Below, piece after piece: positions 2,302-43,869 of a stretch of 64,000 nt of DNA. The stretch comes from Candidatus Binatia bacterium (GTDB lineage Bacteria; Desulfobacterota; Binatia; Bin18). The stretch spans positions 1,024,001 through 1,088,000 of the forward strand of contig OY761159.2 of assembly GCA_963664395.2 (NCBI GenBank). The letters run 5' to 3'. Under the pieces are notes generated by a model. The model was not told where the DNA came from, did not search any database, and saw only the letters and a program-made list of their open reading frames with translations. The translations under genes and the position numbers were made by a program. How positions within the stretch are numbered: position 1 is the first letter of the stretch; each line of letters opens with the position of its first letter.

Positions 2302-2323
2302 CAAGCGAACAGGCAAGTGAACG

Positions 2324-2632: not shown

Positions 2633-2738
2633 CGGTGCCCTCCTCCTATAAGATATTTCATTATAGAGTATTTTGAGTGCTCTGTTCAGCTTAGCCAGAC
2701 AGGCTCCGTATCGGCCAGGGTTTTGATGAGAGAGGAAA

Positions 2739-2982: not shown

Positions 2983-2989
2983 AGAGAGA

Positions 2990-3020
2990 TGTCGGATTAC
3001 GCTCCGCTAATCCGACCTAC
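2990..3020. repeat. GTAG-type REP palindrome
   Basis: TGTCGGATTACGCTCCGCTAATCCGACCTAC; near-identical copy at 42203-42233. Confidence 0.75.
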
Positions 3021-3070
3021 AACTAAGTCAGTAAACGAGAGAAGTTTGTTTGAACGTATTTTTTGTACTC

Positions 3071-3505: not shown

Positions 3506-3531
3506 CGCAATTCACTCCCGATACATAGTTG

Positions 3532-5369: not shown

Positions 5370-5683
5370 GCATCCTCTCCAACTTGTTTATTCTGCCTCA
5401 GTAAGCGCTCCGGGGGCAGGAATCAGGCCAAGAATCAGGCTCTGTTATGCTATGAAAACACAAAAAAGGCAAAAGCGCTTCGACCCTCTTCTCTCATGGG
5501 TGCTCTTCGTCTTCGCTCACCGCTCCGTTCCTGTCTCAGGGGGAAGGGCTGGCGTCCTTCGCTTTACAGGGTTCGTGGCAAGCTCTATGAAGGAAGGAGC
5601 GTCGTTAGAGTCGCTCGGAATTCTGGTCCACCCAAATGAGGCAGTAAGGCGAGCCAGACACATCAGGAAGGAGACCGCGGATT

Positions 5684-6775: not shown

Positions 6776-6793
6776 CGAATATGTCTGGTCAGT

Positions 6794-7633: not shown

Positions 7634-8549
7634 GGTCGGCTTGTTCGTCACGGTCAGCTTCTTTTTATTTGCCAGTGCTCTGCTATGGCTGGCTGGCTCG
7701 CGTTTTTTTCAGTCGGTCGATACCTACACCATTCTCTTTGCAGAGTCGGTCAGTGGACTCTTACCCGGCGCCGCAGTCGAATACCAAGGGGTAACAGTAG
7801 GGAAAGTCGAAACCCTCGGCCTGACCCAGGACGCGCCGCCCCGCGTCCAGGTGACAATTGCGCTCCAGCCAGACACCCCAATCCGACAAGATACGACGGC
7901 TCATCTTATCGGCTCCTTTGTGACCGGCATTCGCTATATCGAATTGGCGGGAGGGTCGAGTGCCGCTCCCGTCTTGGACCCTGGGGCCGTCATTCCAGTG
8001 CAACGCGGGGGACTTGAGGAGTTCCGAGATCGCGCCAGTGCCATTGCTGAGCGCCTGCTGGACACCTTAACCCGCATTGAACAAGGTGTGCTGAGCCAAA
8101 ACAATTTGACCGCAGTCACGGACTTTCTGAGAAATATGTCGCTGCTGACGAAAGACCTGCGCACCTCGCTGGCCGAAGTGTCAACACCGGACACGCGGCT
8201 GGCGTTACGTCAGATGGTCGATAATTTAGCTCAGACTGCCGCCGGTCTGAAAAGCGCCACCGCCGCGATCAACACGATTCGGGAAGAGCTGTTTCAGGAT
8301 GGCAAAGCCATGCTGGTCCAGATTCGAAACACCGCAGAGGTCACCGCCGACCTCGCCAGCGACGTGCGCCGCCTGACCCAACACGTGGACGCGCTTGTGG
8401 TCGATAATCGTCACGAGGTCCGGCAGCTCCTGAGCAATTTGTCACACACCTCGTACGAACTCAGAGAGCTGAGTGTATCCTTACGCACTGACCCGTCTTC
8501 ACTCATCTGGGGGACAACCGTCTCAGCAAAAGAAATTCCCGATCCATGA
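7614..8549 (+). CDS. mlaD: MlaD/MCE-domain periplasmic protein
   Basis: N-terminal TM VGLFV, ESVSGL..GA.V.YQGV.VG.V MCE motif, helical C-terminus ending DPSSLIWG. Confidence 0.85.
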   Translation: MGQDRLKVGLFVTVSFFLFASALLWLAGSRFFQSVDTYTILFAESVSGLLPGAAVEYQGVTVGKVETLGLTQDAPPRVQVTIALQPDTPIRQDTTAHLIGSFVTGIRYIELAGGSSAAPVLDPGAVIPVQRGGLEEFRDRASAIAERLLDTLTRIEQGVLSQNNLTAVTDFLRNMSLLTKDLRTSLAEVSTPDTRLALRQMVDNLAQTAAGLKSATAAINTIREELFQDGKAMLVQIRNTAEVTADLASDVRRLTQHVDALVVDNRHEVRQLLSNLSHTSYELRELSVSLRTDPSSLIWGTTVSAKEIPDP

Positions 8550-9168
8550 GGTATCCCAGGCTCTTCTTTCCGATTCTTCTCATTCCAGCCTTGTGCTCGG
8601 CGGGTGTAGCCTCATGCGCTCCAAACAAGAGGTGCAGTATTACGCTTTGACCCTGCCCACGCGCGCCTCTGCCCCGTCCAGTCCGGCACCCATCACGGCG
8701 TCGCTCGTCGTGCGGCCGTTTAGCGCCCAACCGCCGTATAACCGAGACCGTATTGTCTACCGCTCTTCACCCTATGAGTTTGATTTTTATCACTATCACC
8801 GCTGGGTCACGAAACCGGCTGACATGCTCACCGCCCTGACCCGGCGTTCACTGCAACAGTCTGGTCTCTTTACGACGGTCTATCCCACCTCAGACGCCCA
8901 GGCCGATCTGCAACTCGGAGGGGTTATCCGGCAATACGAAGAGGTCGATCAGACGCAAGCCTGGCAAGCGGTTCTGAGTATCGAGGTGTGGCTGTCCCGC
9001 TCCCGGGAGCCGGCCCCCTTCTGGTTCCAGCTCTATACGGCAACCCAGCCGGCGGCGAAGCGCAACCCGGCTGCTGTTGCTGAAGCGATGAGTCGGAATT
9101 TGCAGGATATTCTTGAGCGACTTGCTCACGATCTGGCACGCGAGTTATCAACGAAGCCACCCCCCTGA
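8546..9168 (+). CDS. ABC-type transport auxiliary lipoprotein (PqiC family); signal peptide frameshifted as assembled
   Basis: ATG at 8546 overlaps the mlaD stop and reads MRYPRLFFPILLI; the frame then shifts to SSLVLGGC lipobox. Y.RDRIVYR...Y.YHRW..P motif. Confidence 0.75.
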
Positions 9169-9210
9169 CGATGAGGACACCTGTCAGACGAATAAGGAGG
9201 AAGACGACCT

Positions 9211-10368
9211 ATGGACGCCACCACAGCCCAGATGCCTTTTGAGGGCGTCATTGATGCCGACGGACATATTTTGGAGCCTCCTGACCTGTGGGAGACCTAT
9301 CTTGAATCAAAATATCAAGACCGGGCCTTACGCATACAAACAGATGAGCACGATCTTGAATATTTAGAGATCAACGGCAAGAAGTCAAAGCTGAGTGCCT
9401 ATGGTACGCTGGGTTTTCTGGGCGGTATGGGCAAAAGCGCGGCAGAGACCATTCCGAAGCCCGAACGGACGTATGTCCGGGGTGCCCCCTTTGGCGCGAT
9501 GAATGCCAAAGAACGGGTGCAGCTCATGGATCAGGAGGGCACGGAAAAGGCGATTCTCTACCCCACACTCGGCATTTTATGGGAGGCCGAGTGTGACGAC
9601 GCGAAAATCTCTTCCGCCTATTGCCGAGCGTATAATCAGTGGATTTTAGATTTCTGCTCCGAGAGTGACGGCCGGCTCCTCCCGGTTGCCCATATCTCAC
9701 TGGGCGACGTTGGCGCAGCAGTCCGTGAATTGGAGCGCACGGCGAAGGCCGGAGCAGTTGGGGCTTTTGTCGCGCCGTTTACGATTACCAAAGTGCCGCA
9801 TGGCCATCCCGACCACGATCCCGTCTGGGCCAAGGCCCAAGAGCTGGATATGCCGATTGCCATCCACCCCACGCTTGAGCCGGTTGCGGTTAATCCCCAT
9901 CTGCGTTTTACCCAAATGGGCCATAAGGCCGGCTGGTATTATAACGTCTTTGCCGGCATGGGCACGCAAATGGCATTTACGACCCTTTTTCAATTCGGAA
10001 CGTTTGACCGCTTCCCCAACCTCAAGGTGGTGGTGCTAGAGAGTGGCGCCGGCTGGGTCGGGTTTTGGATTGATCGCATGGACGCGTTTTATAAAGTTCC
10101 AGTCGGCGCCTCGTGTCAGCTCAAAGACATACCGAGCACCTATCTACGCAATCAATGCTGGATCTCGGCAGATCCGGATGAGCGCGCGCTCACTCAGCTC
10201 GTCGATTATATTGGAGCCGACCGGCTCATGTGGGCAACCGACTTCTCTCATCCCGATCACGGCGGCCATTACGTTCAGGAATTACGCGAGATGTTGTCGC
10301 CACTTCCGGAGCCGGTGCAGAAACAAATTGCCGGAGAGAACGTCAGGCGGTTGTACAAGATATACTGA
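9211..10368 (+). CDS. Amidohydrolase_2 family metal-dependent hydrolase/decarboxylase
   Basis: IDADGHILEP, RAYN.W..DFC, IAIHP, DRFPNLKVVVLESGAGW, WATDFSHPD. Confidence 0.85.
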   Translation: MDATTAQMPFEGVIDADGHILEPPDLWETYLESKYQDRALRIQTDEHDLEYLEINGKKSKLSAYGTLGFLGGMGKSAAETIPKPERTYVRGAPFGAMNAKERVQLMDQEGTEKAILYPTLGILWEAECDDAKISSAYCRAYNQWILDFCSESDGRLLPVAHISLGDVGAAVRELERTAKAGAVGAFVAPFTITKVPHGHPDHDPVWAKAQELDMPIAIHPTLEPVAVNPHLRFTQMGHKAGWYYNVFAGMGTQMAFTTLFQFGTFDRFPNLKVVVLESGAGWVGFWIDRMDAFYKVPVGASCQLKDIPSTYLRNQCWISADPDERALTQLVDYIGADRLMWATDFSHPDHGGHYVQELREMLSPLPEPVQKQIAGENVRRLYKIY

Positions 10369-10371
10369 CTC

Positions 10372-10433
10372 GTAGGCGGGCACCTCTTGTGGGTACCCGT
10401 CAGAAAACGGGCGGGCACAAGACCCGCCCCTCC
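10372..10433. repeat. REPIN-like inverted pair of GTAG-type REP palindromes
   Basis: GTAGGCGGGCACCTCTTGTGGGTACCCG ... CGGGCGGGCACAAGACCCGCCCCTCC between convergent genes. Confidence 0.55.
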
Positions 10434-10448
10434 AATGGGGAAGGGTGA

Positions 10449-12377
10449 CTATTCCCCACCCACCGAAAACGCAATCAGGGCGTTGCCCGACATCCCACCC
10501 CACAGGCCGTAGCCGGAATTGACATACAGCATGCCACCCACAATGGTTGGGCCCGGGCCGTCAAAAGAACCGCCCTTCGTCTTGACGCCGTTGGTGCTCT
10601 CATACTCCTGATCGGCGTCGTAGTCCCATACGACATTCCCGCTGTCGGTGGCATAGCCGCGTAGATGTCCGTCAACCGAACCGGAGAACACCACGCCGGG
10701 CAGCGCCGACACGGCTGCCGACTGAGCGGGACTGCATTGGGGCTTCTCTCCACAGCTGACAGGCGGGACATGCCAGCGGCGCTCACCGCTCTCAATGTCA
10801 ATGGCAAACATGCCGCCGCCGACACTCCCGTCCAGGGTCGTGGCCCAGCCCGCGTCGGAATTCTCTACTGTCTTAATTCCGATATCCGACAGCGCCACAT
10901 AGACTTGTTTGGCATCTGCCGCCGAGCCCCACTGAATCCCGCCGATGATGCCGCCTTTTCCAACGCGGTGCTGCCACAGAATCTCACCGTCGCGGTCCGG
11001 GTCTATGGCATGCATCACCCCGGACTTTTGTCCGGCCAGGATCACGCGCCGGCCATTGGGTAAAATGCGCAGAATCGGAGACGAGGCAAAGTCAAGATCC
11101 GGACCGCGCGCCTCAGGGCAATTCATATCATCCTCGGTCTCACAGCCGACATTCCAGGCATCGCCGGCAGTGAACTGTTTCGACCATAAAAATTTCCCGG
11201 TGCGCATATCAAAAGCCCCCACCGCATCGCTCGTCAGGGAGGCCGGGTCCGAATAATTGTCGCCCGTGGTCACATAGATGCGGTTCCGCTCGGGATCGAG
11301 TACTGGTGAAGACCAGATTGAGGCACCGGACGGCCCCCATAACTGTACGCCAATCGCATTCTTACGCACAGGCGCGGGCGGGTCCGGAAGCGTATACCCC
11401 TTCCAGACTTGCGTGCCGTTAAACCGGTTGAGGGCCACCATGGAGCCTCGGAACGTACAGCACTCATAACTGGGATCACCGCCGGCGACTTCTTCAAACG
11501 CGGTGGCCGAAGCATAGATGCGGTTGCCATGCGTTTTGGGGGTAGCCGTAATCCGCGCCAGGGGATGGTCGTCAATTTTGACTTTCCAGATCTGCCTGCC
11601 GGTTTGCGCATCAAGTGCATACAAATTGGCCTCAACGTCCCCAACATAGACGACGTAGCGCTGCGGATTCGTAGCCGGCAGGCTATCGACCACTGGGGTT
11701 GAGCGGACGCCCGCCGTTGTTTTGACCGACCAGTACAGGCAGCCGGTTTTGGCGTCCAGCGCATACACCAGGCCCTTCATCGTTCCGACGAACACCCGGC
11801 CACCAACCACCGTCGGCTGGGAGGTCTGATAATCCATGGGCAAACCAAACACCCATTTGACCTTCAGGTCAGGAACCTGGTCCGCGCTTATGCCGGCGGC
11901 CGCTGCGGATTGGAAGCGGGTGTTGAAATTATCGGCCCCCCAGCCGTTCCACTGCGGAACACCGTCTTCGATAGCAAATGTCCCTGGCGCGTCTTCACAA
12001 AACCCGGCGACCGTCTCGTCTTTGGCGGTGGGCGGCGGGAGCTTCTTGCCGGTCATCCACTCCGCTAAGGCGCGCCGCTCTCGATTGGTCCGGGTCATGC
12101 CCTGGAATTGCATCTTGCCGAGTTCCAAAGAATTCAAGACCATCAAGGCGGGCAGGCGCTGAATAATGTTACGGTGCGGTGCGCGTTTGACTTGGCCCTC
12201 GTGGCAGCGCGCGCAGTGCGCCTGGTAGAGCGCTTCGCCGTCAGTTCCCCCTTCGGTTGGCGAGAAGGCCCAACTCGGTGCAATACTCATACCCAAGACA
12301 CAGGCAATACCCGCAATGGCTTGGACCGTGACTCGTATGTTTTGGCGTGCAGACCCGATAAACGCTGGGACAGACAT
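10449..12377 (-). CDS. Quinohemoprotein PQQ-dependent dehydrogenase (polyvinyl-alcohol dehydrogenase-like), copy 4
   Basis: Signal peptide, CARCH heme-c motif with axial GKM, QWNGWG, PQQ beta-propeller repeats, YECCTFRG, TTGDNY, GPDLDF, LYVNSGY. RBS AGGAGG before ATG 12377. Confidence 0.88.
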   Translation of the reverse strand: MSVPAFIGSARQNIRVTVQAIAGIACVLGMSIAPSWAFSPTEGGTDGEALYQAHCARCHEGQVKRAPHRNIIQRLPALMVLNSLELGKMQFQGMTRTNRERRALAEWMTGKKLPPPTAKDETVAGFCEDAPGTFAIEDGVPQWNGWGADNFNTRFQSAAAAGISADQVPDLKVKWVFGLPMDYQTSQPTVVGGRVFVGTMKGLVYALDAKTGCLYWSVKTTAGVRSTPVVDSLPATNPQRYVVYVGDVEANLYALDAQTGRQIWKVKIDDHPLARITATPKTHGNRIYASATAFEEVAGGDPSYECCTFRGSMVALNRFNGTQVWKGYTLPDPPAPVRKNAIGVQLWGPSGASIWSSPVLDPERNRIYVTTGDNYSDPASLTSDAVGAFDMRTGKFLWSKQFTAGDAWNVGCETEDDMNCPEARGPDLDFASSPILRILPNGRRVILAGQKSGVMHAIDPDRDGEILWQHRVGKGGIIGGIQWGSAADAKQVYVALSDIGIKTVENSDAGWATTLDGSVGGGMFAIDIESGERRWHVPPVSCGEKPQCSPAQSAAVSALPGVVFSGSVDGHLRGYATDSGNVVWDYDADQEYESTNGVKTKGGSFDGPGPTIVGGMLYVNSGYGLWGGMSGNALIAFSVGGE

Positions 12378-29566: not shown

Positions 29567-30460
29567 CTACAACCAGCCTGATTTGCGGCGGCTTGCCGGT
29601 TCCACACCGGTCAGACACAACCGCACCGCGCTCCAGGCCGCATGAAATGCGTTGCGCAAAGCAACCGCGTCAACGGCGAGCACTCGCAGCCAGGCGCCCG
29701 CATTGTGAGGAAGGGCCGACGCGCCGGCATAGATGTCGGGAATAGGACCGAGCGCCGTTCGTAAGGTCGTCACCAACTCCCCGGCATCATGATCCGACAC
29801 AACCCAGAGCGTCCCTTGCGTCCGGTAGCGCCGCAAGGCCGGTGGCAGACTAGCAACAAACTCGTGTCCGGCAATCTCGAAGCGGTCAATACACAGGCGC
29901 TGACCGTCTGGCCGCTGGACCACTGTTTCATTGAAAAACGAAGCAAACGGACGGGCTAAAGATTCCGGGGATTCCGGGTCGTGCAGGCCAAAGGCATCGC
30001 CGCTGATGGCTGTTGCGCCTTCTTCGACAGTGATGTGGACACAAGAGCGGAAGCGCGCTTGTGGAAATAATGCGAGCGGGTCGGGCAGATACTCAACAAA
30101 ACTGCCTTTCCCCGCCTGGATGGAAACATGCTGCACCGCAGCCCTGCCCTCCTGCATCGAATGGACAACGGTTGCCCCTTGGGTTGTCAGATGGACGCAC
30201 GCCCCGTCCGCAACCGAAAAATCGAGCGCCAAACGATCCTTTTCATACACCCCGCCGGAGATGGATTGCAGGATCAGCGTCGGCATCCCAGGCGGAACAC
30301 GGTCAAAATAAAACGGCTGGGTAAGGGTGAAGGGATAGGTCGTAAATTGTTTGGCAATAAACGTTTGACCGGATGGGTCACGTTTGAAGCTGAGAGAGAC
30401 TTGGGGCGACGTGACGGAGAATGGCTCCGCTGAGAGCCGAGGAGAGGGATCACTACTCAT
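29567..30460 (-). CDS. ureD: Urease accessory protein UreD
   Basis: SGG....D, TTQGAT.V, EYLPDPL..F..A; cluster context. Confidence 0.8.
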   Translation of the reverse strand: MSSDPSPRLSAEPFSVTSPQVSLSFKRDPSGQTFIAKQFTTYPFTLTQPFYFDRVPPGMPTLILQSISGGVYEKDRLALDFSVADGACVHLTTQGATVVHSMQEGRAAVQHVSIQAGKGSFVEYLPDPLALFPQARFRSCVHITVEEGATAISGDAFGLHDPESPESLARPFASFFNETVVQRPDGQRLCIDRFEIAGHEFVASLPPALRRYRTQGTLWVVSDHDAGELVTTLRTALGPIPDIYAGASALPHNAGAWLRVLAVDAVALRNAFHAAWSAVRLCLTGVEPASRRKSGWL

Positions 30461-30497
30461 GTCGTGCTGTGGTGCTTCGGGAGGAGCGCCGCTCCGA

Positions 30498-31121
30498 TCA
30501 CTCAGTAAAAAGTACCTGACGAGCAAGATGGGCGACCACCGCATCTATCCCGTCGCCCGTCTTGCAGTTTGTCAGCACCACCGGCTTTCCACCACGCACC
30601 TCGACCGCTTCGGCGACCATCTGTTCCAGATCAACACCAACGTAGGGAGCAAGGTCTATTTTGTTGATCACCAGCAGGTCACATTGAAGGATGCCGGGGC
30701 CACGTTTGCGTGGAATATCTCCGCCGCCGGATACATCAATCACAAACATCCAATAATCAACCAGCTCCAAGGCAAAGGTCGAGGCCAGATTATCCCCACC
30801 GCTTTCGAGCAGAATGATATCCAGATTCTGAAAACATTCTTCCAACTCTTCAGCCGCTTCTATATTCAGCGTCGGGTCTTCACGAATGACCGTGTGCGGA
30901 CAGGCGCCGGCTTCAACCCCACGGACACGCTCCGGCGCAATGAGACGAGACTGACGAATTCGATCAGCGTCTTCTTGGGTCACCAGGTCATTGGTAATAA
31001 CCGCCAACTCTGTATTTTGCGCATGCAGGGCGGGAATCAGGCGTTCAACCAGGGCCGTTTTGCCCGACCCAACCGGCCCGCCAATCCCAACCCGGGCGAC
31101 AGAAGATGAGACGCGCGTCAT
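30498..31121 (-). CDS. ureG: Urease accessory GTPase UreG
   Basis: [40 protein letters not shown]. Confidence 0.93.
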
Positions 31122-31126
31122 AACGG

Positions 31127-32836
31127 TCACCGTAAAAAATACTTTCGGGCGAGCGGGACCTCCACCACAGGGTCGCACGTCATCAGTTCGCCGTCCGCGT
31201 ACACCTCATGCGTGTGCGGATTGACGCTGATGTCCGGACAGGCATCGTTATGCAGCATATCCCTCTTCCCTAATGCGCGCGTATTCCGAATCGGCAACAT
31301 GGGTTTGTGGAGTTCAAGCTTACGCGGAATATCAGCTTCAAGCGCCAAGGAACTGGCGAAGATCGCACTGAGGGCGGACGGCGCGCTGCCCATCGCTCCC
31401 CACATGGGACGTTGGACGATAGGCTCAACCGGAAAGATGCAGCCACTCGCGTCGCCCATGATAGACCAGGCCATAAAGCCGCCTTTCATCACCATCAACG
31501 GCTTGGCGCCAAAAAACGCCGGCCCCCACAACACCATATCCGCCATCTTGCCCGCTTCCAGGGAACCGACGTAATGATCAATGCCCATAGCTCGGGCGGG
31601 GTTGATGGTGTACTTGGCAATATAGCGTTTAATCCGTTCGTTATCGGCGCGCGCCGTCTTTTCCGCGGGGAGACGACCGCGTTGGTCCTTCATTTTACTC
31701 GCCAGCCGCCAGCAATTTGTAATGGTTTCATTCACCCGTCCCATCCCCTGCGTGTCTGCGGCAAACATCGAGATCGCCCCAAGGTCGTGCAAGACATCTT
31801 CCGCGGCCATGGTCTGCGGACGGATACGGCTTTCTGCAAAGGCGACATCTTCCGGCAAGCGCCAGTTCAGCATATGGGCATCCATGGTCATGGGCAGGGC
31901 TTCGTCGAGCGCATTCCGCGAGTAGGGATTGGTTGGATTGGTGGAAGACGGCAGGCAATTGGGTACGCCCGTTACTCGGATGAGATCAGGCGCGTGGCCA
32001 CCTCCGGCCCCCTCAACGTGATACATATGGATCGTCCGCCCGGCGATCGCGGCCAGCGTGTCCTCACAATAGCCAGCCTCGTTGATGGTATCGGTATGGA
32101 GTTGGACTTGAAAGTCGTATTGATCCGCAACCGTGAGCGCGCAGTCTATGGTGGCCGGCATGGCTCCGAAATCTTCGTGAACCTTGATGCCAATCGCCCC
32201 GCCGGCCACACTCTCCTCAATCGCCGCTCCCGCGTGAGAGTTGCCTCGTCCCAGAAAGCCAAAATTCAATGGATACTGTTCACAGGCCTTCAGCATCTTG
32301 GCCAGATTGTTCGGCCCCGCACAGCTGATATCAAAATGCGGCCCCATGGTTCCGCCAATGATGGTCGTAATGCCGCTGGCCAGGGCGTGTTCACACTGCT
32401 GCGGACACAGGAAGTGGGCGTGCGCTTCCACTCCCCCTGGGGTAATGATCAGACCATCGCCGTGCACGATGGTCGTACACGGACCGCAGATCAGTTCAGG
32501 CCGGACACCATCTTGGATAGCGGGATTCCCGGCTTTTCCCACCCCAACGATCTTGCCGTCCTTAATGCCAATATCGCCCTTCACAATGCCCAGCACCGGG
32601 TCAATGATCGTGGCGTTTTGGACAACCATATCCAGCCCGCCTGACGCCGCGGTCGTGTGGGCGTGAAATCCCATCCCGTCGCGCATCACCTTGCCAGCGC
32701 CAGTCATACACTCATCACCATAGACAGCATGATCGTGCTCAACCTCGGCCAGCAGCGAGGTGTCGCCCAGACGCACCATATCCCCCTGTGTTGGCCCATA
32801 CGTAGCCGCATAGGCCGCGCGTGTCAGTCTTGCCAT
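31127..32836 (-). CDS. ureC: Urease alpha subunit-like protein (divergent)
   Basis: [62 protein letters not shown]. The flap motif is atypical. Confidence 0.9.
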
Positions 32837-32849
32837 AATGCAGTCTCTC

Positions 32850-33554
32850 CTATGCGCCCTTAAAGCCTTGTTCTTTGGCCCGTTGGAGAGCGGCCTGCTT
32901 GACCGCTTCGGAATGAATGGACCCATTCGTGAGATTATTGAGACCGGTGACTTCTCCGGTACCACCAATTGTGACCAACCGGGCTTCTTTCTTCATGCCG
33001 GGCTCAAAACGCACAGACGCGCCAGCCGGCACGTCCAGACGCATGCCAAACGCCCGCGCCCGCTCAAACTCCAGGGCTTTATTGGCTTCAAAGAAATGAA
33101 AATGACTGGCGACTTGGATGGCGCGATCCCCGGTATTGATGACATCGAGGGTGAGTGTTGCGCGGCCCTGGTTGAGTGCGATCTCTTCATCCGGCGTGAT
33201 GATCGCGCCCGGTCGCCCATAGGGAGATTCAGGCAGAGGCTCGGAGCCGGGTCGGATCGGATTATACACGGCAATGAGCCTAGTCCCGTCCGCGAACAGC
33301 CCATCCACCATAACCCGGGACACCAGCTCAGCAACGTTGGGCAGCACGTCATCGGTCGTCAGTAGAGTGGACCCCAGGCTCACGAGTTCGGCTACCGATT
33401 TGCCCTCACGCGCGCCCTCAAGCAGCTCATCCGTGATATAGGCAGTGGCTTCGGCGGTATTGAGCTTGAGCCCTTTGGCCTTATGGCGGCGCGCAAGTTC
33501 GGCCGCCATAAAAATAGTCAAGCGTTCGTTTTCTGTGGGTGTGAGGTTGAGCAT
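32850..33554 (-). CDS. ureAB: Urease gamma/beta fusion subunit
   Basis: Gamma: LKLN..EA...EGAREG, F.DGT.L. Beta: [38 protein letters not shown]. Confidence 0.9.
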
Positions 33555-33592
33555 TGTTATTCCCCCTGGAGATAAAGCCTGCGCTGGGCGGG

Positions 33593-34279
33593 TCAATTCG
33601 CAAACAAGCGCGTCGCCTGCGTCTCATGCCGCATCATGGCAATATCCGCAACTGGCGTAAAGCTTGTTAACAATTCAGGCAGGGGTCCGGAAAGAAGTGT
33701 GAGCACGGTCTGTCGTGTCTGCTGAACAATCAGTTGCGCCTGTATATGACTGATAAAGCCGAGCCGGATGGCGACACTCACAAACGCCACGCATTGGATA
33801 TGTCCGGACAGCAGCGTGGCAGTTTCTTCGTCCAGCCCGACCCCTCTCCAGACAAGGCCCTGAACGACAGGGATATGCCCCCACGCCTGCCCGGCTTTGA
33901 CCGCATCCAAATAGGCGGCTGCGTGGGGCGTCCGGAGCCGGGCATGAACGCGCAACAAGGCACGTCCGGTACGACGCGATACGGCACGCAGTTCACGCAC
34001 AAGCGCGAGAGCTTCCACTGCTGCATCAATCCTGGCAATCTCCTCCAGATCGTTTTGGTTGCGGCCCTGTGCCCGATGGGCGCGAATGAGGGCGGGTCGG
34101 TCACACCTTGCCCAACGATGTCGGAGTTGGCCTTGGACGAAGTGCAGCAGTGTATCAGCGTCATGCACGTAGACATCTGCGAACAGCGTCTCCAGTCCCC
34201 ACGAAGCGGCAAAGCCACCGCTGGGGAAAAAGCTATCACCGTGTTGTAGAGCAGTCAGCAGTGCCGTCGGGTCAGTCAT
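33593..34279 (-). CDS. ureF: Urease accessory protein UreF
   Basis: LQ.GDSFFPSGGFA.SWGLE; C-terminal HETQATRLFAN. Confidence 0.9.
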   Translation of the reverse strand: MTDPTALLTALQHGDSFFPSGGFAASWGLETLFADVYVHDADTLLHFVQGQLRHRWARCDRPALIRAHRAQGRNQNDLEEIARIDAAVEALALVRELRAVSRRTGRALLRVHARLRTPHAAAYLDAVKAGQAWGHIPVVQGLVWRGVGLDEETATLLSGHIQCVAFVSVAIRLGFISHIQAQLIVQQTRQTVLTLLSGPLPELLTSFTPVADIAMMRHETQATRLFAN

Positions 34280-34721
34280 GTTCCACTCGCTTCACTCTGC
34301 CACTCGTCAGGAAAGGCACCAGCCGATCAAGATACTCATCTTCCGGTCCTTCTTTGGCAATCAGAATCTGACTATTCGAGAATTTGACGCGCCAATGCAT
34401 GTTGCCGGCAAGATAACCCAACTCAAGTGCGGCGGACGTATCAATGGGACAAAAGGTCAGCCAGGTCTCATCTGTCATCCGAACGACGATGGCCTTATCG
34501 TCTTCGAGATATAGCACAGCTCCGTCACTCAAATATTCATCACGACGCAGAGCAATGGCCACATCCGTCCCGCTATCCGTTGTCGCCCGCAAGCGATGTC
34601 GCTTGGCGTCAGCCCGATCAAGGAGCAGGGTTTCCAGTCCAGCAGCATGGCTGATTGTGTGGAGCCGTTCCGCTATCTCTGGATCAGCGGCATAGCCCAG
34701 GATTGTCGTGATGCGTAGCAT
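34272..34721 (-). CDS. ureE: Urease accessory protein UreE (no His-rich tail)
   Basis: RHRLRATTDSG..VAIAL....L.DG.VL, LGY.AGNMHW. Confidence 0.8.
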   Translation of the reverse strand: MLRITTILGYAADPEIAERLHTISHAAGLETLLLDRADAKRHRLRATTDSGTDVAIALRRDEYLSDGAVLYLEDDKAIVVRMTDETWLTFCPIDTSAALELGYLAGNMHWRVKFSNSQILIAKEGPEDEYLDRLVPFLTSGRVKRVEHD

Positions 34722-34748: not shown

Positions 34749-35051
34749 CTAGCCACGGGCCGTTTTTGCCATAAACGCGCCAGTGGCAATCAAGCAGCCT
34801 CCACTCAAACACCGGGGCCAACGGAATCGGGTGGGCTGCTGAAAAAAGAGTGTGGCTCTACTGGCCAAGACGGCATAGACAGTCAACACCACAAAGACGA
34901 TGAAGATATATGTTACTCCAAGAATAATCTGCTGGCGGACCACATCGGCCCCTGAATCTACGAACTGAGAGAAGAGCGAGAAATAGAACAGCGGGGAGGC
35001 AATAACCAGGAAGGCCGTAAAGATAAAGGCCAGATAGAATTCAATCGTCAT
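34749..35051 (-). pseudogene. LysE/RhtB-type translocator with large in-frame internal deletion
   Basis: N-terminal ...FLVIASP is joined directly to LFYFSLFSQFV; 100 aa versus ~200 aa typical for the family. Confidence 0.6.
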
Positions 35052-36559: not shown

Positions 36560-36946
36560 TTACCCGCCCATTTCCGCGATGCGCAGCGCCATCCATTCTA
36601 CGTACGCCGTACGGGTCATGCCGCGCCTGCGCGCCTCGCCGTCGATAAAGGCAGCGACGCCCTCATCAAGCGTCATATGGGTGCGCACGCTCCGACCCGA
36701 GAGACGGATCAACGGAACGGATATAAGAGTCTGCCCGGCCAGGGGTTCCACCCACTCCAGAGCGCTTGGCGGCGTGACCGCCTCGCCGTCCTTTTCCGCC
36801 TCAATCACATAATCGCGAAGCGCTTCCTCAGCGTTTACCATTGCCTCGTCAATGGTTTTTCCCATGGCGACGATGCCGGGAAGGTCGGGAAACGTAACAC
36901 CATAGTTGCCTTTTTCGCCATCGATCAATGCGGGATACCGGACCAT
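36560..36946 (-). CDS. hicB: HicB antitoxin
   Basis: YGVTFPDLPG..AMG.T.DEA..NA.EAL plus C-terminal RHH-like segment. Confidence 0.88.
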   Translation of the reverse strand: MVRYPALIDGEKGNYGVTFPDLPGIVAMGKTIDEAMVNAEEALRDYVIEAEKDGEAVTPPSALEWVEPLAGQTLISVPLIRLSGRSVRTHMTLDEGVAAFIDGEARRRGMTRTAYVEWMALRIAEMGG

Positions 36947-37159: not shown

Positions 37160-37334
37160 TACCGCTTTTCTTTTGCACATATATATGCACCTTTTCGCGA
37201 GAATATATCAAGCCGTTTCGCGCAAAAAATGGGATTGAGAGCTACACATGGGCGTATTAGGGTAACAGCAGGGCTGGAATTTGCTGCGAAGATTATTGCG
37301 AAGATTATATTGAAAGACTGGCAAGGAGGCTGTG

Positions 37335-37787
37335 ATGTCTACCCCGTTCTCTGGTGGTTGCGCGTGTGGCGCGATTCGGTATGAATGTACGGTTGACCCT
37401 GTTTTTTCGTGGAATTGCCACTGTCGGGATTGTCAACGCGCAAGCGGCAGTGCGTTTTGCCCGGTTTCATATGTCCCCAAGACTGCGCTGACTGCGCTCT
37501 CCAGCACCAGAGCAGTCGCCTATTATGAAGTGAAGGCAGAAAGCGGGAATACCGTCCGGCGCGGTTTTTGTCCGCAGTGCGGCTCGCCGGTCTTTATCCT
37601 GGCCGAGCTTGTTCCTGACCTGATAGGCGTCTGGGCCGCAAGCCGAGATGAGCCGGGTCAGTTTCAGCCTGCGGTCAATGTCTGGACCGCGAGCGGGCAT
37701 CCCTGGGATGTGATGCATGCAGCCCTGCCGGCCTGTCCGAAAGCCCCGACCGAAACGGAGATGCAGAAGATACTGGGCTCTCAGTGA
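37335..37787 (+). CDS. GFA (CENP-V) family zinc protein
   Basis: GGCACGAIRY, CHCRDCQR.SG, R.FCPQCGSP. Confidence 0.9.
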   Translation: MSTPFSGGCACGAIRYECTVDPVFSWNCHCRDCQRASGSAFCPVSYVPKTALTALSSTRAVAYYEVKAESGNTVRRGFCPQCGSPVFILAELVPDLIGVWAASRDEPGQFQPAVNVWTASGHPWDVMHAALPACPKAPTETEMQKILGSQ

Positions 37788-37887
37788 TCGGATGCTCTTT
37801 TATTCCCATTCATCTTTCCAACAACACGTCAATAACCAACCGAAGGGATTGGGCGAAGGTCCAGGTGTAAAGATTCCGCATTCTCCC

Positions 37888-37917
37888 TTGACGTGGCTCA
37901 AGCATTTTTCATACAGT
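37888..37917 (+). promoter_or_regulatory. Possible sigma-70 promoter for the rid-amidase genes
   Basis: TTGACG-N18-TACAGT, ~35 nt upstream of ATG 37951. Confidence 0.35.
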
Positions 37918-37950
37918 CAGGATTAATCACACCTAAAAAGGAGACGGGCT

Positions 37951-38358
37951 ATGATCACACGCAGCAACCCGGATGTGGGCTATATTGCGGACGAGGTATT
38001 CCAGACATACGCGTTCACCCAAAACATCAAAGCGGGCAACACGCTTTACCTGTCGGGAGTCACTCCCCTCAAGGGCGACCTTGAAAATGTTGAGGTAGTA
38101 GGCGCCGGAGATATGCGTGCCCAGGTCGCACAAACCCTGGAGATCGTGAAGCGTTGTCTAGCCGCTGAGGGAGCTACTTTCAAAAACTGGGTCGTCCAAA
38201 CAGTCTATACCACGAACATGGCTGAGCTCCAGAAAACGGCCGACGTCTTTCGAGAGGCGTTTGGGGGCTACTCGCCGACGAGTACCTGGGTAGAGATCAA
38301 AGGGTTATTTCATCCCGAACAGATGATCGAGATCAGTGGGATTGCTATTTTAGACTGA
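37951..38358 (+). CDS. Rid (YjgF/YER057c/UK114) family protein
   Basis: AGNTLYLSG, Q..Q.LE.....L.A.G, P.STWV.I.GL..P..MIEI; lacks the catalytic Arg of RidA. Confidence 0.85.
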   Translation: MITRSNPDVGYIADEVFQTYAFTQNIKAGNTLYLSGVTPLKGDLENVEVVGAGDMRAQVAQTLEIVKRCLAAEGATFKNWVVQTVYTTNMAELQKTADVFREAFGGYSPTSTWVEIKGLFHPEQMIEISGIAILD

Positions 38359-38425
38359 GCCGTTCGTCTTTGGCTGAACGGCAACCACGTTCCTTGTTTA
38401 TAGCCTTTCCCGAAGGAGTTACATC

Positions 38426-39871
38426 ATGTCAGATCAATTCGCTCATCTCGATGCCACCGCCCAAGCGGAACTCATCCGAAAAGGTGAAGCCACACCACTT
38501 GAGCTTGTTGATGCCGCGATTGCCCGGGTAGAAAAACTCAACCCTCAGCTCAACGCGGTGATTCACCCGTTGTTTGAAAAGGCACGCACCCAAGCCCAGG
38601 CCGCAGACCTGCCGGACGGTCCCTTTCGAGGCGTTCCGTTTGTGATGAAAGACTTACTCGGGGGTCCGGCAGGAGAGCCGTTGCATAATGGGATGCAGTT
38701 CCTTAAACGGCTGAACTTCACCTCACCGCAAGACACCTATCTGTCGGTAAAGTTTCGTCAGGCCGGCTTTATCAGCGTTGGTCGGACCAACACGCCGGAG
38801 TGGGGGCTGATGGGCACGACCGAACCGGCGGCCTATGGTCCGACCCATAACCCCTGGAATCTCGATCATTCTTCTGGTGGCTCAAGCGGCGGGAGTTCTG
38901 CTTCTGTCGCTGCCCGTATTGTCGCCGTCGGGCATGGTGGCGATGGTGGTGGGTCGCTGCGCATTCCAGCCAGTATGTGTGGCATTGTTGGTCTCAAACC
39001 AAGTCGTGGCCGGGTCTCGTTTGGTCCTGGTATGGGCGAGTGCTGGCATGGGATGGCCAACGAAGGCGTGATGACGCTTTCGGTCCGCGACATGGCGGGC
39101 GTGCTCGATAGTATGCACGGCGTCATGCCCGGCGACCCCTATGCCGCTCCCACGCCGCTACGCCCGTACGCCGACGAGGTCGGGCGCGACCCCGGCAGGC
39201 TGCGTATCGGCCTCATGCTCCAGCGGCCTCGCAACGATGCGCCGCTGCATCCGGAATGCAAAATCGCAGTCGAGCAGACTGGCAAGCTGCTCGAATCGTT
39301 CGGCCATACGGTCGAGATCGCGCATCCCGAAGCGTATGACGAAGCAGAGTGGATTGACCACTGGACCCATGTTGTCAATGCGCACTCAGCCCTGACTGCG
39401 GACGAGATCGAAGCCGCCGCCGGACAGAGAATTGGCGAAGGCGATATTGAGCCGTATGCCTGGCGTTTCGTGGAAGAGGGCCGCAAAATTTCTGCAACCA
39501 GTTATCTTTCATCGATGAACTGGCTGCACGCCTGGGCACGACGCCTGGCAAGTTGGTGGGTCAGTGGCTTTGATCTCCTGGTTACCCCAACTCTTGGCGA
39601 GCCACCCCCGCGCTTAGGCGATATGGGCGGGCCAAGCAATGACAACCTCGCCAAGTGGGAACGCAATCTTGAGGTCATTCCCTTCACGCCGGCGAATAAT
39701 GCCTCAGGCCAGCCAGGTCTGTCGCTGCCGCTCCATTGGACCCCGGACGGCTTGCCGGTCGGGGTGCATTTTGTGCCGGCCTATGGCCAGGAGGATTTGC
39801 TGCTGCGGATCGGCTCCCAGATCGAGCAGGCCCAGCCATGGATGGACAAGCGTCCGCCGGTGTGTGCGTAA
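38426..39871 (+). CDS. Amidase signature family enzyme
   Basis: GVPF.MKDL, GRTNTPE, NPWN....[29 protein letters not shown] (Ser-cisSer-Lys triad). Confidence 0.92.
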   Translation: MSDQFAHLDATAQAELIRKGEATPLELVDAAIARVEKLNPQLNAVIHPLFEKARTQAQAADLPDGPFRGVPFVMKDLLGGPAGEPLHNGMQFLKRLNFTSPQDTYLSVKFRQAGFISVGRTNTPEWGLMGTTEPAAYGPTHNPWNLDHSSGGSSGGSSASVAARIVAVGHGGDGGGSLRIPASMCGIVGLKPSRGRVSFGPGMGECWHGMANEGVMTLSVRDMAGVLDSMHGVMPGDPYAAPTPLRPYADEVGRDPGRLRIGLMLQRPRNDAPLHPECKIAVEQTGKLLESFGHTVEIAHPEAYDEAEWIDHWTHVVNAHSALTADEIEAAAGQRIGEGDIEPYAWRFVEEGRKISATSYLSSMNWLHAWARRLASWWVSGFDLLVTPTLGEPPPRLGDMGGPSNDNLAKWERNLEVIPFTPANNASGQPGLSLPLHWTPDGLPVGVHFVPAYGQEDLLLRIGSQIEQAQPWMDKRPPVCA

Positions 39872-39872
39872 A

Positions 39873-40025
39873 CCCTCACCCCGGCCCTCTCCCTGCGGGA
39901 GAGAGAAATTTTTGTAGGGTGCGCCCTGCGCACCAGCAGGTTGGCGCGGGTGCATAGCGGGTGCATATGATGATACGGTCAGAAGAAACCCACCCCGGCC
40001 TTCGGCCACCCCTCCGAGGAGGGGA
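39873..40025. repeat. Cluster of three different REP-like palindromes
   Basis: CCCTCACCCCGGCCCTCTCCC-TGC-GGGAGAG (39873); GTAGGGTGCGC-CCT-GCGCACC (39914); ACCCACCCCGGCCTTCGGCCACCCCTCCGAGGAGGGG (39988, second copy at 42329). Confidence 0.65.
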
Positions 40026-40088
40026 GCTGAATGAAGAGTTTGGCCAAGAAATGAGTATTAATTCCGTAAAACGTAAGGAGGGAATATC

Positions 40089-40523
40089 ATGGCGACGAAA
40101 AAGGCAACGCAAAAGACCACAACCGCGCAGGACGCAGCCGTTCCAAAAATTATTGATCCGGGCTGGAGCTGGGACGATAAGCTGCCATTAGCCCAAGCCA
40201 AACAAATCGGCAACACCATCTATGTGTCCGGACAGATCGCTTTCAACCCGCAGGGGAGACTCGTGGGCAAAGGCAATATGAAAGCCCAGACGCGTCAGGT
40301 CTTCCGCAATATCAAGGCGGTCCTTGCTGCGGCGGGCGCGAAGATGGAGCATATTATAAAAATCAATACCTATATCACCGACGGCAGCAAGTTCATGGAG
40401 ATGCTCGAAGCGCGCGGAGACATCTTCGGCGACAATCCACCGGCCAGTACCGCCGTTGTGGTGGCCGGCCTGGCCTTTCCGGGACTCCTGATTGAGGTCG
40501 AAGCGATTGCCGTCAAGCCGTAA
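40089..40523 (+). CDS. Rid family protein
   Basis: QA..IGNTIYVSGQ, AQTRQVF.NI..VL..AG, PPAST.V.V.GL..PG.LIEVEAIA; no catalytic Arg. Confidence 0.88.
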   Translation: MATKKATQKTTTAQDAAVPKIIDPGWSWDDKLPLAQAKQIGNTIYVSGQIAFNPQGRLVGKGNMKAQTRQVFRNIKAVLAAAGAKMEHIIKINTYITDGSKFMEMLEARGDIFGDNPPASTAVVVAGLAFPGLLIEVEAIAVKP

Positions 40524-41454
40524 CGCCGCGCTTCTCGATCAGACCCGGAACCCGCAGCACCTCAAGGGCTTGCTGCTCATGCTCGGCGCAAGTTTGTGCT
40601 GGAGCACGGGCGGCCTGTTTGTTCGCTCCGTCAGCATCCCCAATAGTTGGGAGATTGCCTTCTGGCGCTCGCTCGCCATGGGGGTGTTCCTTTTCGTCTG
40701 GCTCGCCTTTCGTTACGCGGGCAACGTGCGACGAGCGGTCGGCGCCATCGGGCTGGGCGGCTTCCTGGCTGGCCTGTGTCTGGCCGCCTCATTCCTGGGT
40801 TTCATTCTCGCCGTCACCCAGACAACGGTGGCGCATACCCTCGTCATTATCAGCACCTCGCCCTTTCTTGCTGCGCTTCTTGGCCGGGTGTTTCTCGGGG
40901 AGCTGGTTCCGGCACGTCGCTACGTTGCCATGAGTATTGCCCTGACCGGCATCATCGCCATGTGTCTCGATTCTTTCACCGTCGGGACGCTGGCCGGGAG
41001 TGTCATAGCCGCTGGCGTTGCGGTCGCCTTTGCCGTCTGTGTGGTTTTGCTGCGTCACAGTCAGGCCCGAGCCGATATGACGCCGGCCATTCTGGTTGCT
41101 GCGCTCATCTCCAGCGCTGTGGCCCTGCCCTTCAGTCTGCCGTTTCAGGCCGCGTGGCAGGACATCGGCATATTGGCATGTATGGGTACCGTTCAGGGCG
41201 GGCTGGGATGCCTGCTCATGACGCTGGCGGCACGACATATTACCGCGGTCGAAGTCAGTCTTCTGGCCCTCCTGGAAACGATCCTTGGTCCGCTGTGGGT
41301 GTGGATCGGCGTGGGGGAACGACCCAGCGATCTTGCCATTGTTGGCGGTCTGGTTGTGGTTGCCTCGTTGGCCCTGAACGAACTCCTGGGCCTGTACGGA
41401 CAAAGCCGCACAGTGGAAGCACCGGCTGCACTGCCCTCAGGTCAATCCGTGTGA
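40507..41454 (+). CDS. DMT/EamA family transporter
   Basis: About ten hydrophobic segments, WSTGG..VR, AFWRS, EVSLL.LLE.ILGPLWVW...GE.P. Start codon uncertain (TTG 40507 or ATG 40579). Confidence 0.85.
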   Translation: MPSSRNAALLDQTRNPQHLKGLLLMLGASLCWSTGGLFVRSVSIPNSWEIAFWRSLAMGVFLFVWLAFRYAGNVRRAVGAIGLGGFLAGLCLAASFLGFILAVTQTTVAHTLVIISTSPFLAALLGRVFLGELVPARRYVAMSIALTGIIAMCLDSFTVGTLAGSVIAAGVAVAFAVCVVLLRHSQARADMTPAILVAALISSAVALPFSLPFQAAWQDIGILACMGTVQGGLGCLLMTLAARHITAVEVSLLALLETILGPLWVWIGVGERPSDLAIVGGLVVVASLALNELLGLYGQSRTVEAPAALPSGQSV

Positions 41455-42426: not shown

Positions 42427-43869
42427 TTAGGCACACACCGGCGGCAGTTTCTCGATCCACGGCTGGGCCTGTTCAAGCTGAGCCGCAACGCTGAGCAACA
42501 CGTCTTCCCGCCCGTACGCAGGCATGAGATGTACGCCAACCGGCAGGCCGTCTTCACTCCAGTGTAGAGGCAAGGAAATCCCCGGTTGGCCGGTCACATT
42601 CGCAACCGGGGTATACGGGATCAGGTCGATCACCCGCCGATACACCTCATCCGGGTCGGCCGCGGCGCTGCATAGTTGACCCAAAGGCGGCGGCGGTGAG
42701 CCAAGGGTCGAGGTGAGGAGCAGGTCAAACCCCTCGGCCCACCAAGCGGCGAGACGACGCTCCCAGCGTTCCAGCCATTCGAGCGCGGCAATATACTCCG
42801 TCACACCGATGGACCGGCCCCGGTTCATGAGATCCCAGGTGTAGCGCTCAAAATCGCCGGGACCGACTTCGCGGCCAAGCGCGTCGGCAACGTCTTCAGC
42901 GGTCCGTGCGGAGTGGGCGAGTACAATCGTGCCAAAGGGAGCACCCCATTGCTCGTCCAGCGCCTCCGGGTACGCGGTTTCGACCCGATGGCCGAGAGAC
43001 TCCAGGAGTTTTGCCGCGTTCTCTGCCGCGGCTACACATTCGGGATGCAGGGCGTCTTGATTGCCCGGCCGCTTGGTCATCAGGCCGATGCGGAGCGAGC
43101 CGGGGTCACGTTGGGCAGCCGCGACGAACGAGCCCTCACAGGCGGGAGCCGTATACGGGTCGCCCGGCATGTGCCCTGCGGTCGCGTCAAGGACGGTGGC
43201 CGCGTCACGCACGGACAGCGAGACCACCCCTTCGGCAATGCAGCCGGCCCAGGCTTCGCCATAATCCGGCCCGAGCGATAAACGCCCCCGACTGGGTTTC
43301 AGGCCGACCAAGCCACACGCACTGGCTGGGATGCGAATCGACCCCCCGCCATCATTGGCGTGCGCCACGGGAACTATACGCGCGGCTACCGCCGCGGCAC
43401 TGCCGCCGCTCGACCCACCGGTCGAGTGGTTGGTATTCCACGGATTCCGGGTCGGACCGTAGGCTTCCGGCTCCGTCGTGGTGGCGAAGCCGAATTCCGG
43501 GGTGTTGGTCTGGCCAATCGTAATCAGGCCGGCGGCACGGAATTTGTCGGCCAGATAGGTGCTGTGCGAGGCCGTGTATTTCGCCTCTTTGAGCCCCTTA
43601 CAGCCACTATGGATTTCATCCCCGGCATGCGCGCAGAACAGGTCTTTCAGCAGGAAGGGCACCCCCTTGAGCGGACCGTCGGGTAAGGCTGCCGAGTCGG
43701 CTTCGGCGCGCGCCTTTTCATACCGCGGACGGATTACGGCATTAAGTTGCGGGTTGAGCTTTTCCACCCGCTCGATAGCGGCATCCACAAGCTCCCGTGG
43801 ACTGACTGCTCCGCTCCGCACCAACTCGGCCTGCGCGCTTGCATCCATTTTTGCGAGATCGTCTGCCAT
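42427..43869 (-). CDS. Amidase signature family enzyme (paralogue of 38426-39871)
   Basis: [34 protein letters not shown]; same C-terminus PPVCA. Confidence 0.92.

Follow-up and report, generated by a model that had tools for sequence, protein, structure and literature searches.

The window analyzed here, a 64,000-nucleotide stretch of the genome of a Candidatus Binatia bacterium (assembly GCA_963664395.2, contig OY761159.2, positions 1,024,001 to 1,088,000 of the forward strand), carries a complete urease gene cluster whose alpha subunit, UreC, keeps the nickel ligands of canonical urease and has a remodeled substrate pocket. Judged from sequence, we see an even chance that the cluster encodes a working nickel-dependent urease-type amidohydrolase whose specificity has moved away from urea, toward some small amide or ureide related to it. 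Such a shift is suggested because the loop and flap of the active site have been rebuilt and fixed, because the clade to which this UreC belongs is an extra copy beside a normal urease, and because amidases and a drifted importer travel with it. That clade, designated A+B below, appears to be a widespread side-branch of the ureases that normally accompanies an ordinary one.

The cluster occupies positions 29567 to 34721 of the minus strand, where ureE, ureF, a fused ureAB, ureC, ureG, and ureD follow one another in the order E-F-AB-C-G-D as six contiguous or overlapping open reading frames (ORFs), all of them open (Table 1). Window ORFs were identified by their NCBIfam and Pfam profile scores against curated cut-offs. 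The gamma and beta components, UreD, UreE, UreF, and UreG were all found intact, and each matched its own family; a first-pass annotation, made from the sequence alone, was thus right in describing a complete nickel-urease-type system with intact metal ligands and accessory genes. As for starts, the ureAB ORF opens at TTG 33596 and its family alignment begins at ATG 33554, ureC probably starts at ATG 32836 (11 nucleotides past the ureAB stop), and the ureG ORF opens at GTG 31178 with a likely start at ATG 31121, 6 nucleotides past the ureC stop. UreD of the window is 74 to 79% identical to UreD of Binatia relatives. In eight such relatives the variant cluster consists of ureF-AB-C-D only, and neither ureE nor ureG was found in their 17- to 20-kb variant loci by labeled maps, with which tblastn agreed for three. 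These genomes still hold a canonical urease cluster, from which the variant enzyme presumably borrows UreE and UreG.

To compare active sites, the window UreC was aligned with HMMER to the urease of Sporosarcina pasteurii (1s3t_C, 643 bits), its best match in the Protein Data Bank. The six nickel ligands are all kept: H139, H141, K218, H247, H273, and D361 correspond to H137, H139, K220, H249, H275, and D363 of S. pasteurii. The first two lie in an HAH motif at 32414-32422, H247 lies within LHTDT, H273 within YHVEG, and K218 together with H220 within KVHEDFG. Side chains that serve catalysis or substrate binding are kept as well, with H220, D222, flap H321, and R337 corresponding to His222, Asp224, His323, and Arg339. 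From the urease structural literature, we take Ala170 and Ala366 to be carbonyl contacts to urea, His222 to bind the urea oxygen, and His323 to be the proton donor.

Around these residues the pocket differs. The HEDFG motif, the change leading to GMGR, and the shortening of the Ala170 loop, all noted at first pass, each appeared in the alignment to 1s3t_C; within the shortened loop, F168 and D169 of the window UreC are invariant in the clade (D or E at 169). In the mobile flap, relative to S. pasteurii, Cys and His315 are both replaced by Ala, His324 by Met, Asp317 by Pro, Leu319 by Thr, and Pro by Trp. The first-pass annotation had the flap losing its Cys and one His; the Cys is indeed gone, but two His (315 and 324) are lost, while catalytic His323 is kept. 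Accordingly, the canonical combination of flap (E-H-L-D-M-L-M-V-C-H-H-L), HEDWG, and long loop (GGGTGP...ATT.TPGPW) is absent from the window UreC and present in 11 of 11 canonical paralogues. In the available part of PMC6077230, a conserved Cys and a conserved His are assigned to the mobile flap that gates the urease active site.

To place the variant among its relatives, the 120 best homologues of the window UreC (63 to 95% identity) were aligned, and they sorted into motif classes. A degenerate DNA pattern for the variant flap was also run over species-representative genomes, which returned at least 114 stretches, 80 of them with 10-kb flanks. Carriers among the matches listed were Candidatus Binatia, Bradyrhizobium, Paracoccus, Labrys, Acidocella, Geminicoccus, Skermanella, Burkholderiales, Mycobacterium, Mycolicibacterium, Rhodococcus, and Kineococcus, together with metagenome-assembled genomes of Gemmatimonadota, Methylomirabilota, and Planctomycetota. 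The database name of every member among those matches is "urease subunit alpha." We found no description of the clade, no characterized member, and no urease homologue acting on a compound other than urea in the literature searched, whose coverage leaves out most subscription journals.

A tree was then built from 221 UreC sequences, comprising 121 proteins from the homologue search, the UreC of the loci, 11 canonical sequences, and several third copies from the same genomes; it was rooted on the canonical set, an assumed root. From that root, the order is canonical, a paraphyletic type D, type C, and then clade A+B, which is monophyletic (152 sequences, support 1.0). Sub-clade A, which includes the window UreC, has 19 sequences (support 0.994), and sub-clade B has 133 (support 0.856). 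Types C and D join A+B in a short-loop family that is monophyletic against the canonical set (support 0.999), and the window falls in this lineage both by its UreC and by its fused UreAB (NF009671). Its UreC carries all four A+B signatures, namely a GP-x-F-[DE] loop, HED[FLY]G, an E-[AG]-x-P-M-T-M-x-x-H flap, and F358. Median root-to-tip length was 0.4 for canonical sequences, 0.79 for type D, 1.12 for both C and A, and 1.52 for B. Among accessory proteins, UreG of the window is 58 to 74% identical to UreG of clade-B and type-D clusters, versus 49 to 54% for seven of eight canonical loci and 62% for the other (L137), and it is of the short-loop-family type.

Solved ureases were scored in the same way. 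The window UreC matched 31 of them at 615 to 643 bits and 9it2_C at 527 bits; against the same 31, a type-D protein scored 631 to 678 bits and the canonical paralogue of a sister Binatia genome 772 to 929 bits (829 for both jack bean and Helicobacter pylori). The short-loop lineage with fused gamma/beta subunits lies outside all 32 solved ureases. The first-pass annotation had proposed a UreC phylogeny as a check, and the deep separate clade that it anticipated was recovered, apart from canonical and from all structurally solved ureases. As a side observation, one locus on a contig labeled Frankia sp. RB7 has an importer, an amidase, ure genes, and UreC motifs that group with Bradyrhizobium loci in the tree, which suggests assembly contamination or a recent transfer.

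Within clade A+B, residues H139, H141, K218, H220, D222, H247, H321, and R337 are identical in all 152 sequences, and H273 and D361 each in 151. Positions counted as discriminating if the 11 canonical and 37 type-D sequences agreed on one residue with a conservation of 90% or more and if no more than 5% of A+B kept it. Twelve emerged: 47, 137, 223 (W to F/L/Y), 251, 309, 313 (H to G/A), 315 (D to P), 319, 322 (H to M/F/I/V), 343, 374, and 375. Five of them fall in the 14-residue flap stretch 309-322 (hypergeometric p = 3e-6). The Trp of HEDWG, present in 48 of 48 canonical and type-D sequences, is F, L, Y, or M throughout A+B (152/152). Every member also has F168, Asp or Glu at 169, and F358; residues 168-169 are F-A in type C, V-G in type D, and A-T in canonical sequences. 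The Trp after the loop (position 176) has become N, H, or R, and the Pro after the flap W, F, or Y in 149 of 152. The flap Cys position holds Ala in 123 members and Cys in 27; because Cys persists in these 27, its loss is not the defining change. The pocket changes are far beyond chance, as 152 homologues spread over many phyla show the same states. With a ratio of nonsynonymous to synonymous substitution rates (dN/dS) of 0.043 to 0.057 for the window ureC against eight Binatia relatives, the pattern looks like that of a working enzyme whose substrate-facing parts were changed and then held.

Other copies of ureC were sought with TIGR01792 in 20 other variant-bearing genomes, 5 from Binatia and 15 from different genera. 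All 20 contained a second ureC of 854 to 983 bits beside a variant copy of 681 to 762 bits, and seven had a third, six of these at 787 to 827 bits and one at 616 bits. The high-scoring copies inspected had the long loop and the CHH flap, and the three third copies inspected were type D. As a base rate, among 81 genomes of one carrier's family, 65 had a ureC match at E <= 1e-150, at least 60 of them in the canonical score range, and 2 had a full-length match in the variant score range, both also with a canonical copy.

The genome of the window (G000) is the exception, as the variant ureC is its only one. A second canonical ureC, which the first-pass annotation had suggested looking for, is therefore present in every other carrier searched and survives here as a relic only. 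The canonical urtABCDE-ureA(B)C was lost from G000:C1:2152000-2166000 (locus L152), where about 9.6 kb of the sister-genome locus L135 (approximately 957-10588) is missing and an RND efflux operon of czcC/czcB/czcA type (L152 4995-10469) takes its place. A 39-codon remnant of the ureC 3' end remains at G000:C1:2162513-2162629, beside a second ureG (L152 11016-11633) and a second ureD (L152 11524-12597), and a stretch of about 68 bp is matched on both sides of the czc insert. No UrtA above the cut-off was found in the whole genome (best 104 bits versus 492.75). Separately, a 2.2-kb sister stretch (L135 14843-17051) matches both C1:1133390-1135599 and C8:5333-7542 of G000 with equal identity; several small contigs of this assembly may be repeat copies.

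Gene context was evaluated by clustering the ORFs of 114 loci and the window and labeling them by BLAST against NCBIfam-annotated representatives. Counts refer to the 78 loci whose UreC ORF spans half of the reference or more, short fragments having been dropped. An amidase of the amidase-signature family flanks 45 of these variant loci, compared with 0 of 11 canonical and 2 of 6 type-D control loci. A PRK07235-type amidase (806 bits, cut-off 545) occurs at 28 of the 78, in most cases immediately upstream of ureE and in the same orientation; among solved structures it comes closest to 3a1k (469 bits), which we take to be an amidase from a nitrile-hydratase cluster of Rhodococcus. A Urt-like ABC importer encoded by five genes occurs at 34 of the 78, and Urt genes are present at 9 of 11 canonical loci. 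The best solved relatives of the clade-B importer binding protein are 8tg1 (153 bits), three UrtA proteins (7s6e, 144 bits), and AmiC (1qnl, 90 bits). At 7 of 10 actinobacterial variant loci, a Nik/Opp-type ABC system stands in place of the Urt-like importer.

A Labrys genome with all three ureC types allows importers to be compared within one organism. Beside the canonical ureC (TIGR01792 973 bits), UrtA (567), UrtB (428), UrtC (430), UrtD (380), and UrtE (337) all passed their cut-offs. Beside the type-D ureC (820 bits), UrtA failed at 407, and UrtB (322), UrtD (322), and UrtE (300) passed, that is, three of the four scored, UrtC being not found or scored. Beside the variant ureC (719 bits), UrtA (250), UrtB (209), UrtC (177), UrtD (264), and UrtE (267) passed none. 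Importer and variant enzyme thus appear to have moved off the urea archetype together. On a plasmid of Pleomorphomonas sp. SM30, two "amiC" genes, genes for liv-type permeases, and an amidase gene come after a clade-B cluster. On plasmid pAA01 of Aminobacter aminovorans, binding-protein and ANTAR-domain genes (L153 908-2684) precede a type-D cluster, and a HupE/UreJ gene follows it; we take the pairing to be an AmiC/AmiR-like amide sensor pair, and by analogy the arrangement suggests that ligand-induced antitermination may control the type-D urease lineage. Urt paralogues adjoining amidases have been argued to carry amides other than urea, according to the available part of PMC3098086. The part of PMC4222082 at hand describes msmeg_1082-1090 of Mycobacterium smegmatis, an Opp/Nik-type ABC system with amidases, as induced by nitrogen starvation and mentions "two ureases"; this is a lead only, in that the adjoining genes may be of the variant type.

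The setting of the cluster in the window itself is weak as evidence. Going upstream from ureE, one meets a divergent MATE gene and then hicB, with GFA, RidA, and amidase genes on the other strand; GNAT, cupin, and cysE genes lie downstream of the cluster. The neighborhood is common to Binatia relatives, which are close kin and hence count as one observation. Neither a Urt-like nor any other urea transporter was labeled between 19000 and 45000, so the earlier statement that none is adjacent holds. The context argument is borrowed from clade B, because the window lacks a linked transporter and a co-oriented amidase.

Table 1. Urease cluster, active-site segments, and neighboring genes in the window (cut-offs in parentheses; S. 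pasteurii numbering where stated)
Feature	Position	Strand	Remarks
ureE, nickel metallochaperone, 149 aa	34272..34721	-	NF009752 equivalog 179 bits (162), PF02814; GNMH motif
ureF accessory protein, 228 aa	33593..34279	-	PF01730 110 bits; no NCBIfam match
ureAB, fused gamma/beta structural subunit	32850..33596	-	NF009671 (PRK13192, bifunctional) 324.7 bits (243); PF00547 and PF00699
ureC, variant alpha subunit, 569 aa (P0001)	31127..32836	-	TIGR01792 758.3 bits (680); NF009686 814 bits; PF00449 and PF01979
ureG GTPase	30498..31178	-	TIGR00101 246 bits (204); CPH motif
ureD accessory protein, 325-aa ORF, alternative ATG 30460	29567..30544	-	PF01774 125 bits
Ala170 loop, remodeled	32312..32344	-	4 residues shorter than S. 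pasteurii GPAEGSKATTVTPGP; deletion takes out the Ala170-bearing stretch
HEDFG	32165..32179	-	Trp to Phe; substrate-binding His220 and Asp222 retained
Mobile-flap segment	31862..31912	-	Catalytic His321 retained; canonical counterpart DEHLDMLMVCHHL
ADTQGMGR	31736..31759	-	Nickel-ligand Asp361 retained; Ala to Gly at S. pasteurii Ala366; Gly common to types C and D
HicB-like antitoxin gene	36560..36946	-	PF15919; between MATE and GFA genes
GFA, RidA, and amidase-signature amidase genes (amidase 38426-39871)	37332..39871	+	In a row
Second, similar amidase	42427..43869	-	Resembles amidase 38426-39871

Twenty public sequencing runs from 10 studies contain the window stretch, and some of the DNA and RNA runs among them are labeled "sponge metagenome." Contigs of four RNA-library runs (three studies) cover ureC, ureAB, ureG, and ureE/F at 95% identity or more, for example over 31849-33106 with 8 differences and over 30315-30795 with 5. 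These contigs speak for presence rather than level, DNA carry-over being possible, and no weight is put on stretches that they leave uncovered. RNA-library contigs of three runs (two studies) also span the RidA and amidase genes of the window, for example 37948-40623.

Scans for sigma-54 and sigma-70 promoters and for terminators around the cluster stayed at chance level. One sigma-54-like -24/-12 site with two mismatches lies at 34767-34782 on the minus strand, 46 nucleotides upstream of the ureE start, and may be a weak hint of NtrC-type control, in a window total of 26 such sites versus 34.9 expected. At Rfam gathering thresholds, the whole window and the loci of seven relatives gave one tRNA and two 5_ureB_sRNA matches only. 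The latter, named for an antisense RNA of H. pylori, lie at L025 9260-9557 and L033 9265-9555 (Rhodococcoides and Bradyrhizobium), antisense to the 5' end of the variant ureC, and were set aside as most likely conserved coding sequence rather than an RNA gene.

From these data we infer nickel use, a mechanism, and a substrate shift for the variant enzyme. Nickel is indicated by the presence of the accessory genes, by CPH in UreG, and by the Nik/Opp systems often encoded nearby. The enzyme would consist of the fused gamma/beta subunit and the alpha subunit, matured by its own UreE, UreF, UreG, and UreD. A carbamylated Lys would bridge the two nickel ions, a carbonyl (or some equivalent sp2 carbon) would be attacked by the bridging hydroxide, and ammonia would leave with help from the flap His. 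The substrate-holding and gating parts, namely the Ala170 loop, the flap, and the Trp that follows HED, have been rebuilt and then frozen. The product would be a nitrogen-scavenging hydrolase, with formamide or short amides, N-substituted or acyl ureas, biuret, and guanidine-type compounds as candidate substrates; the invariant Phe could pack on a group that replaces one NH2 of urea, and the invariant Asp or Glu could pair with a further N-H or with a cationic group. The first-pass annotation had proposed a nickel amidohydrolase for a different or larger substrate. Of this, the different substrate is favored by the remodeled pocket, by paralogy, and by the amidase and importer links of relatives, but urea may still be a substrate, as the catalytic residues are kept and the equivalog cut-off is passed. 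A larger substrate found no support of its own, because the invariant Phe and Asp/Glu in a shorter loop could equally make the pocket smaller or charged.

Extended to the whole clade, the same reasoning is more tentative. At slightly under an even chance, A+B would be the first neofunctionalized branch of the ureases: nickel dependent, matured by UreDEFG, with another small nitrogen-rich compound as its physiological substrate, the invariant Phe and Asp/Glu as its specificity switch, and nitrogen scavenging as its role, both in bacteria of soil and sea and in the organism of the window.

The strongest alternative is that the variant is a true urease isozyme, with urea as its physiological substrate, whose flap and loop alter kinetics, gating, or inhibitor sensitivity instead of specificity; an enzyme without a reactive flap thiol might, for example, be less sensitive to oxidants, quinones, and heavy metals. 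We give this a sizeable probability, although clearly less than half, and a number of observations pull toward it and away from a substrate shift. All six nickel ligands are retained, and so are H220, D222, H321, and R337, so that no side chain known to serve catalysis or substrate binding in urease is missing. The window UreC still scores above the NCBI urease alpha equivalog cut-off, with 758.3 bits on TIGR01792 versus 680, the canonical copies in five sister genomes reaching 973 to 977. The urea contacts lost at Ala170 and Ala366 are backbone carbonyls, which a new loop could still supply. Klebsiella aerogenes mutants of the flap Cys and of the neighboring noncatalytic His reportedly stay active, and 27 of the 133 clade-B members retain the Cys. 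A short loop alone is compatible with urea, because type D, with its canonical flap and HEDWG, sits beside importers that pass the UrtB, UrtD, and UrtE cut-offs. Coexistence with a canonical ureC in 20 of 20 genomes is only mildly informative, because canonical urease is common anyway in at least one carrier family (65/81). In addition, the genome of the window dropped its canonical urtABCDE-ureABC yet keeps the variant cluster with a full accessory set, a loss of ureABC that would be easy to tolerate if the kept cluster still hydrolyzes urea. The window and its Binatia relatives have no operon-linked importer, and the nearby amidase is on the other strand behind the MATE gene. Finally, no riboswitch or regulator naming a ligand was found in the Rfam search of the window and the seven relatives' loci, and the available part of PMC6077230 counts the Cys among the gating residues of the flap rather than the catalytic ones.

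An isozyme that still acts on urea accounts less readily for other features of the clade. Twelve positions conserved in canonical and type-D sequences alike were fixed anew, with a concentration in the flap, and a new invariant Phe and Asp/Glu stand at the substrate loop. Clade A+B has a long stem and a raised rate, the variant is never the sole ureC in the 20 other genomes, the linked importer falls below all Urt cut-offs, and amidases are co-operonic. On these grounds we retain the shift of specificity toward a small amide or ureide as our reading of the cluster.

A urease-type enzyme with a metal other than nickel, as in the iron-containing UreA2B2 of Helicobacter mustelae, with pocket changes that reflect the metal, would fit both the Glu that all 152 sequences have for Asp at 137, in the second shell just ahead of the first His ligand, and the H-A-H that stands in place of H-V-H. 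We consider it improbable given the full UreE/F/G/D sets with CPH in UreG and GNxH in UreE, the Nik/Opp-type system beside the cluster at 7 of 10 actinobacterial loci, and the score of 3qga_C, which at 617 bits is no closer than nickel ureases (643). A decaying or noncatalytic relic, moonlighting or without a role, would fit the loss of near-invariant urease motifs and of ureE and ureG from the clusters of close relatives, but it is more improbable still in view of six intact frames, RNA-library contigs over the genes, a dN/dS near 0.05, and catalytic residues invariant across 152 sequences from several phyla.

Urease (EC 3.5.1.5) is the textbook nickel enzyme, its family is taken to act on one substrate, and surveys of soils, oceans, and guts widely rely on ureC as a marker gene for urea use. 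With at least 114 species genomes carrying the variant, much of what is annotated as "urease alpha" or counted by the ureC marker may reflect something other than urea use, and the clade may reveal a new nickel-dependent route for an unrecognized nitrogen source. As an experiment of nature, it could also show which residues of pocket and flap govern the specificity of urease and its sensitivity to thiol-directed inhibitors. Should it prove to be an ordinary urease, the "invariant" flap Cys, the flap His, and the Ala170 loop would be shown to be dispensable.

Among known systems, the variant resembles canonical nickel urease (UreABC of K. aerogenes and S. pasteurii), with which it shares the two-domain alpha subunit (PF00449 and PF01979), gamma/beta partners, the six nickel ligands, the substrate His, Asp, and Arg, the catalytic flap His, and the UreD/E/F/G set. 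The window UreC is 50.6 to 56.1% identical to the 11 canonical paralogues (median 53%) and scores about 200 bits below the sister-genome canonical copies on TIGR01792. In place of the canonical flap E-H-L-D-M-L-M-V-C-H-H-L-x-P, the variant has E-A/G-x-P-M-T-M-x-A/C-H-(M/F/I/V)-L-x-W/F/Y; it also differs in a loop four residues shorter with invariant F and D/E, in HED(F/L/Y)G, in its fused gamma/beta subunit, and in the order E-F-AB-C-G-D.

Type D, exemplified by A. aminovorans pAA01, Pseudomonas alliivorans, and the third ureC of Labrys sp. KNU-23, shares with the variant its lineage (support 0.999), the fused UreAB (NF009671), loop length, G-M-G-R, and about 64% UreC identity; a biochemical study of type-D ureases was not found in the literature searched. 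Its genes run E-F-AB-C-G-D in pAA01 and in loci L143, L149, and L150, and AB-C-G-D-E-F in L144 and L145. Unlike the variant, type D has a canonical flap (DEHLDM.MVCHHLNP), HEDWG, SDSQ, V-G where the variant has F-D, and an importer that passes the UrtB, UrtD, and UrtE cut-offs, whereas that of the variant passes none. UreA2B2 of H. mustelae (3qga) resembles the variant in combining the urease fold with a divergent second urease beside a standard one, but 3qga_C is no closer to the window UreC than nickel ureases are, and the window UreC does not carry the features of the iron type. The H. mustelae enzyme reportedly uses iron and needs no accessory genes, whereas the variant has a full nickel-delivery set. 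Amide operons (amiEBCRS of Pseudomonas aeruginosa, and blr0968-0973 of Bradyrhizobium as described in the available part of PMC3098086) resemble clade B in pairing a UrtA/AmiC-like binding protein with an amidase; they use nitrilase-superfamily, FmdA-type, or amidase-signature enzymes and not a nickel-urease homologue, and the window differs from them further in having no importer.

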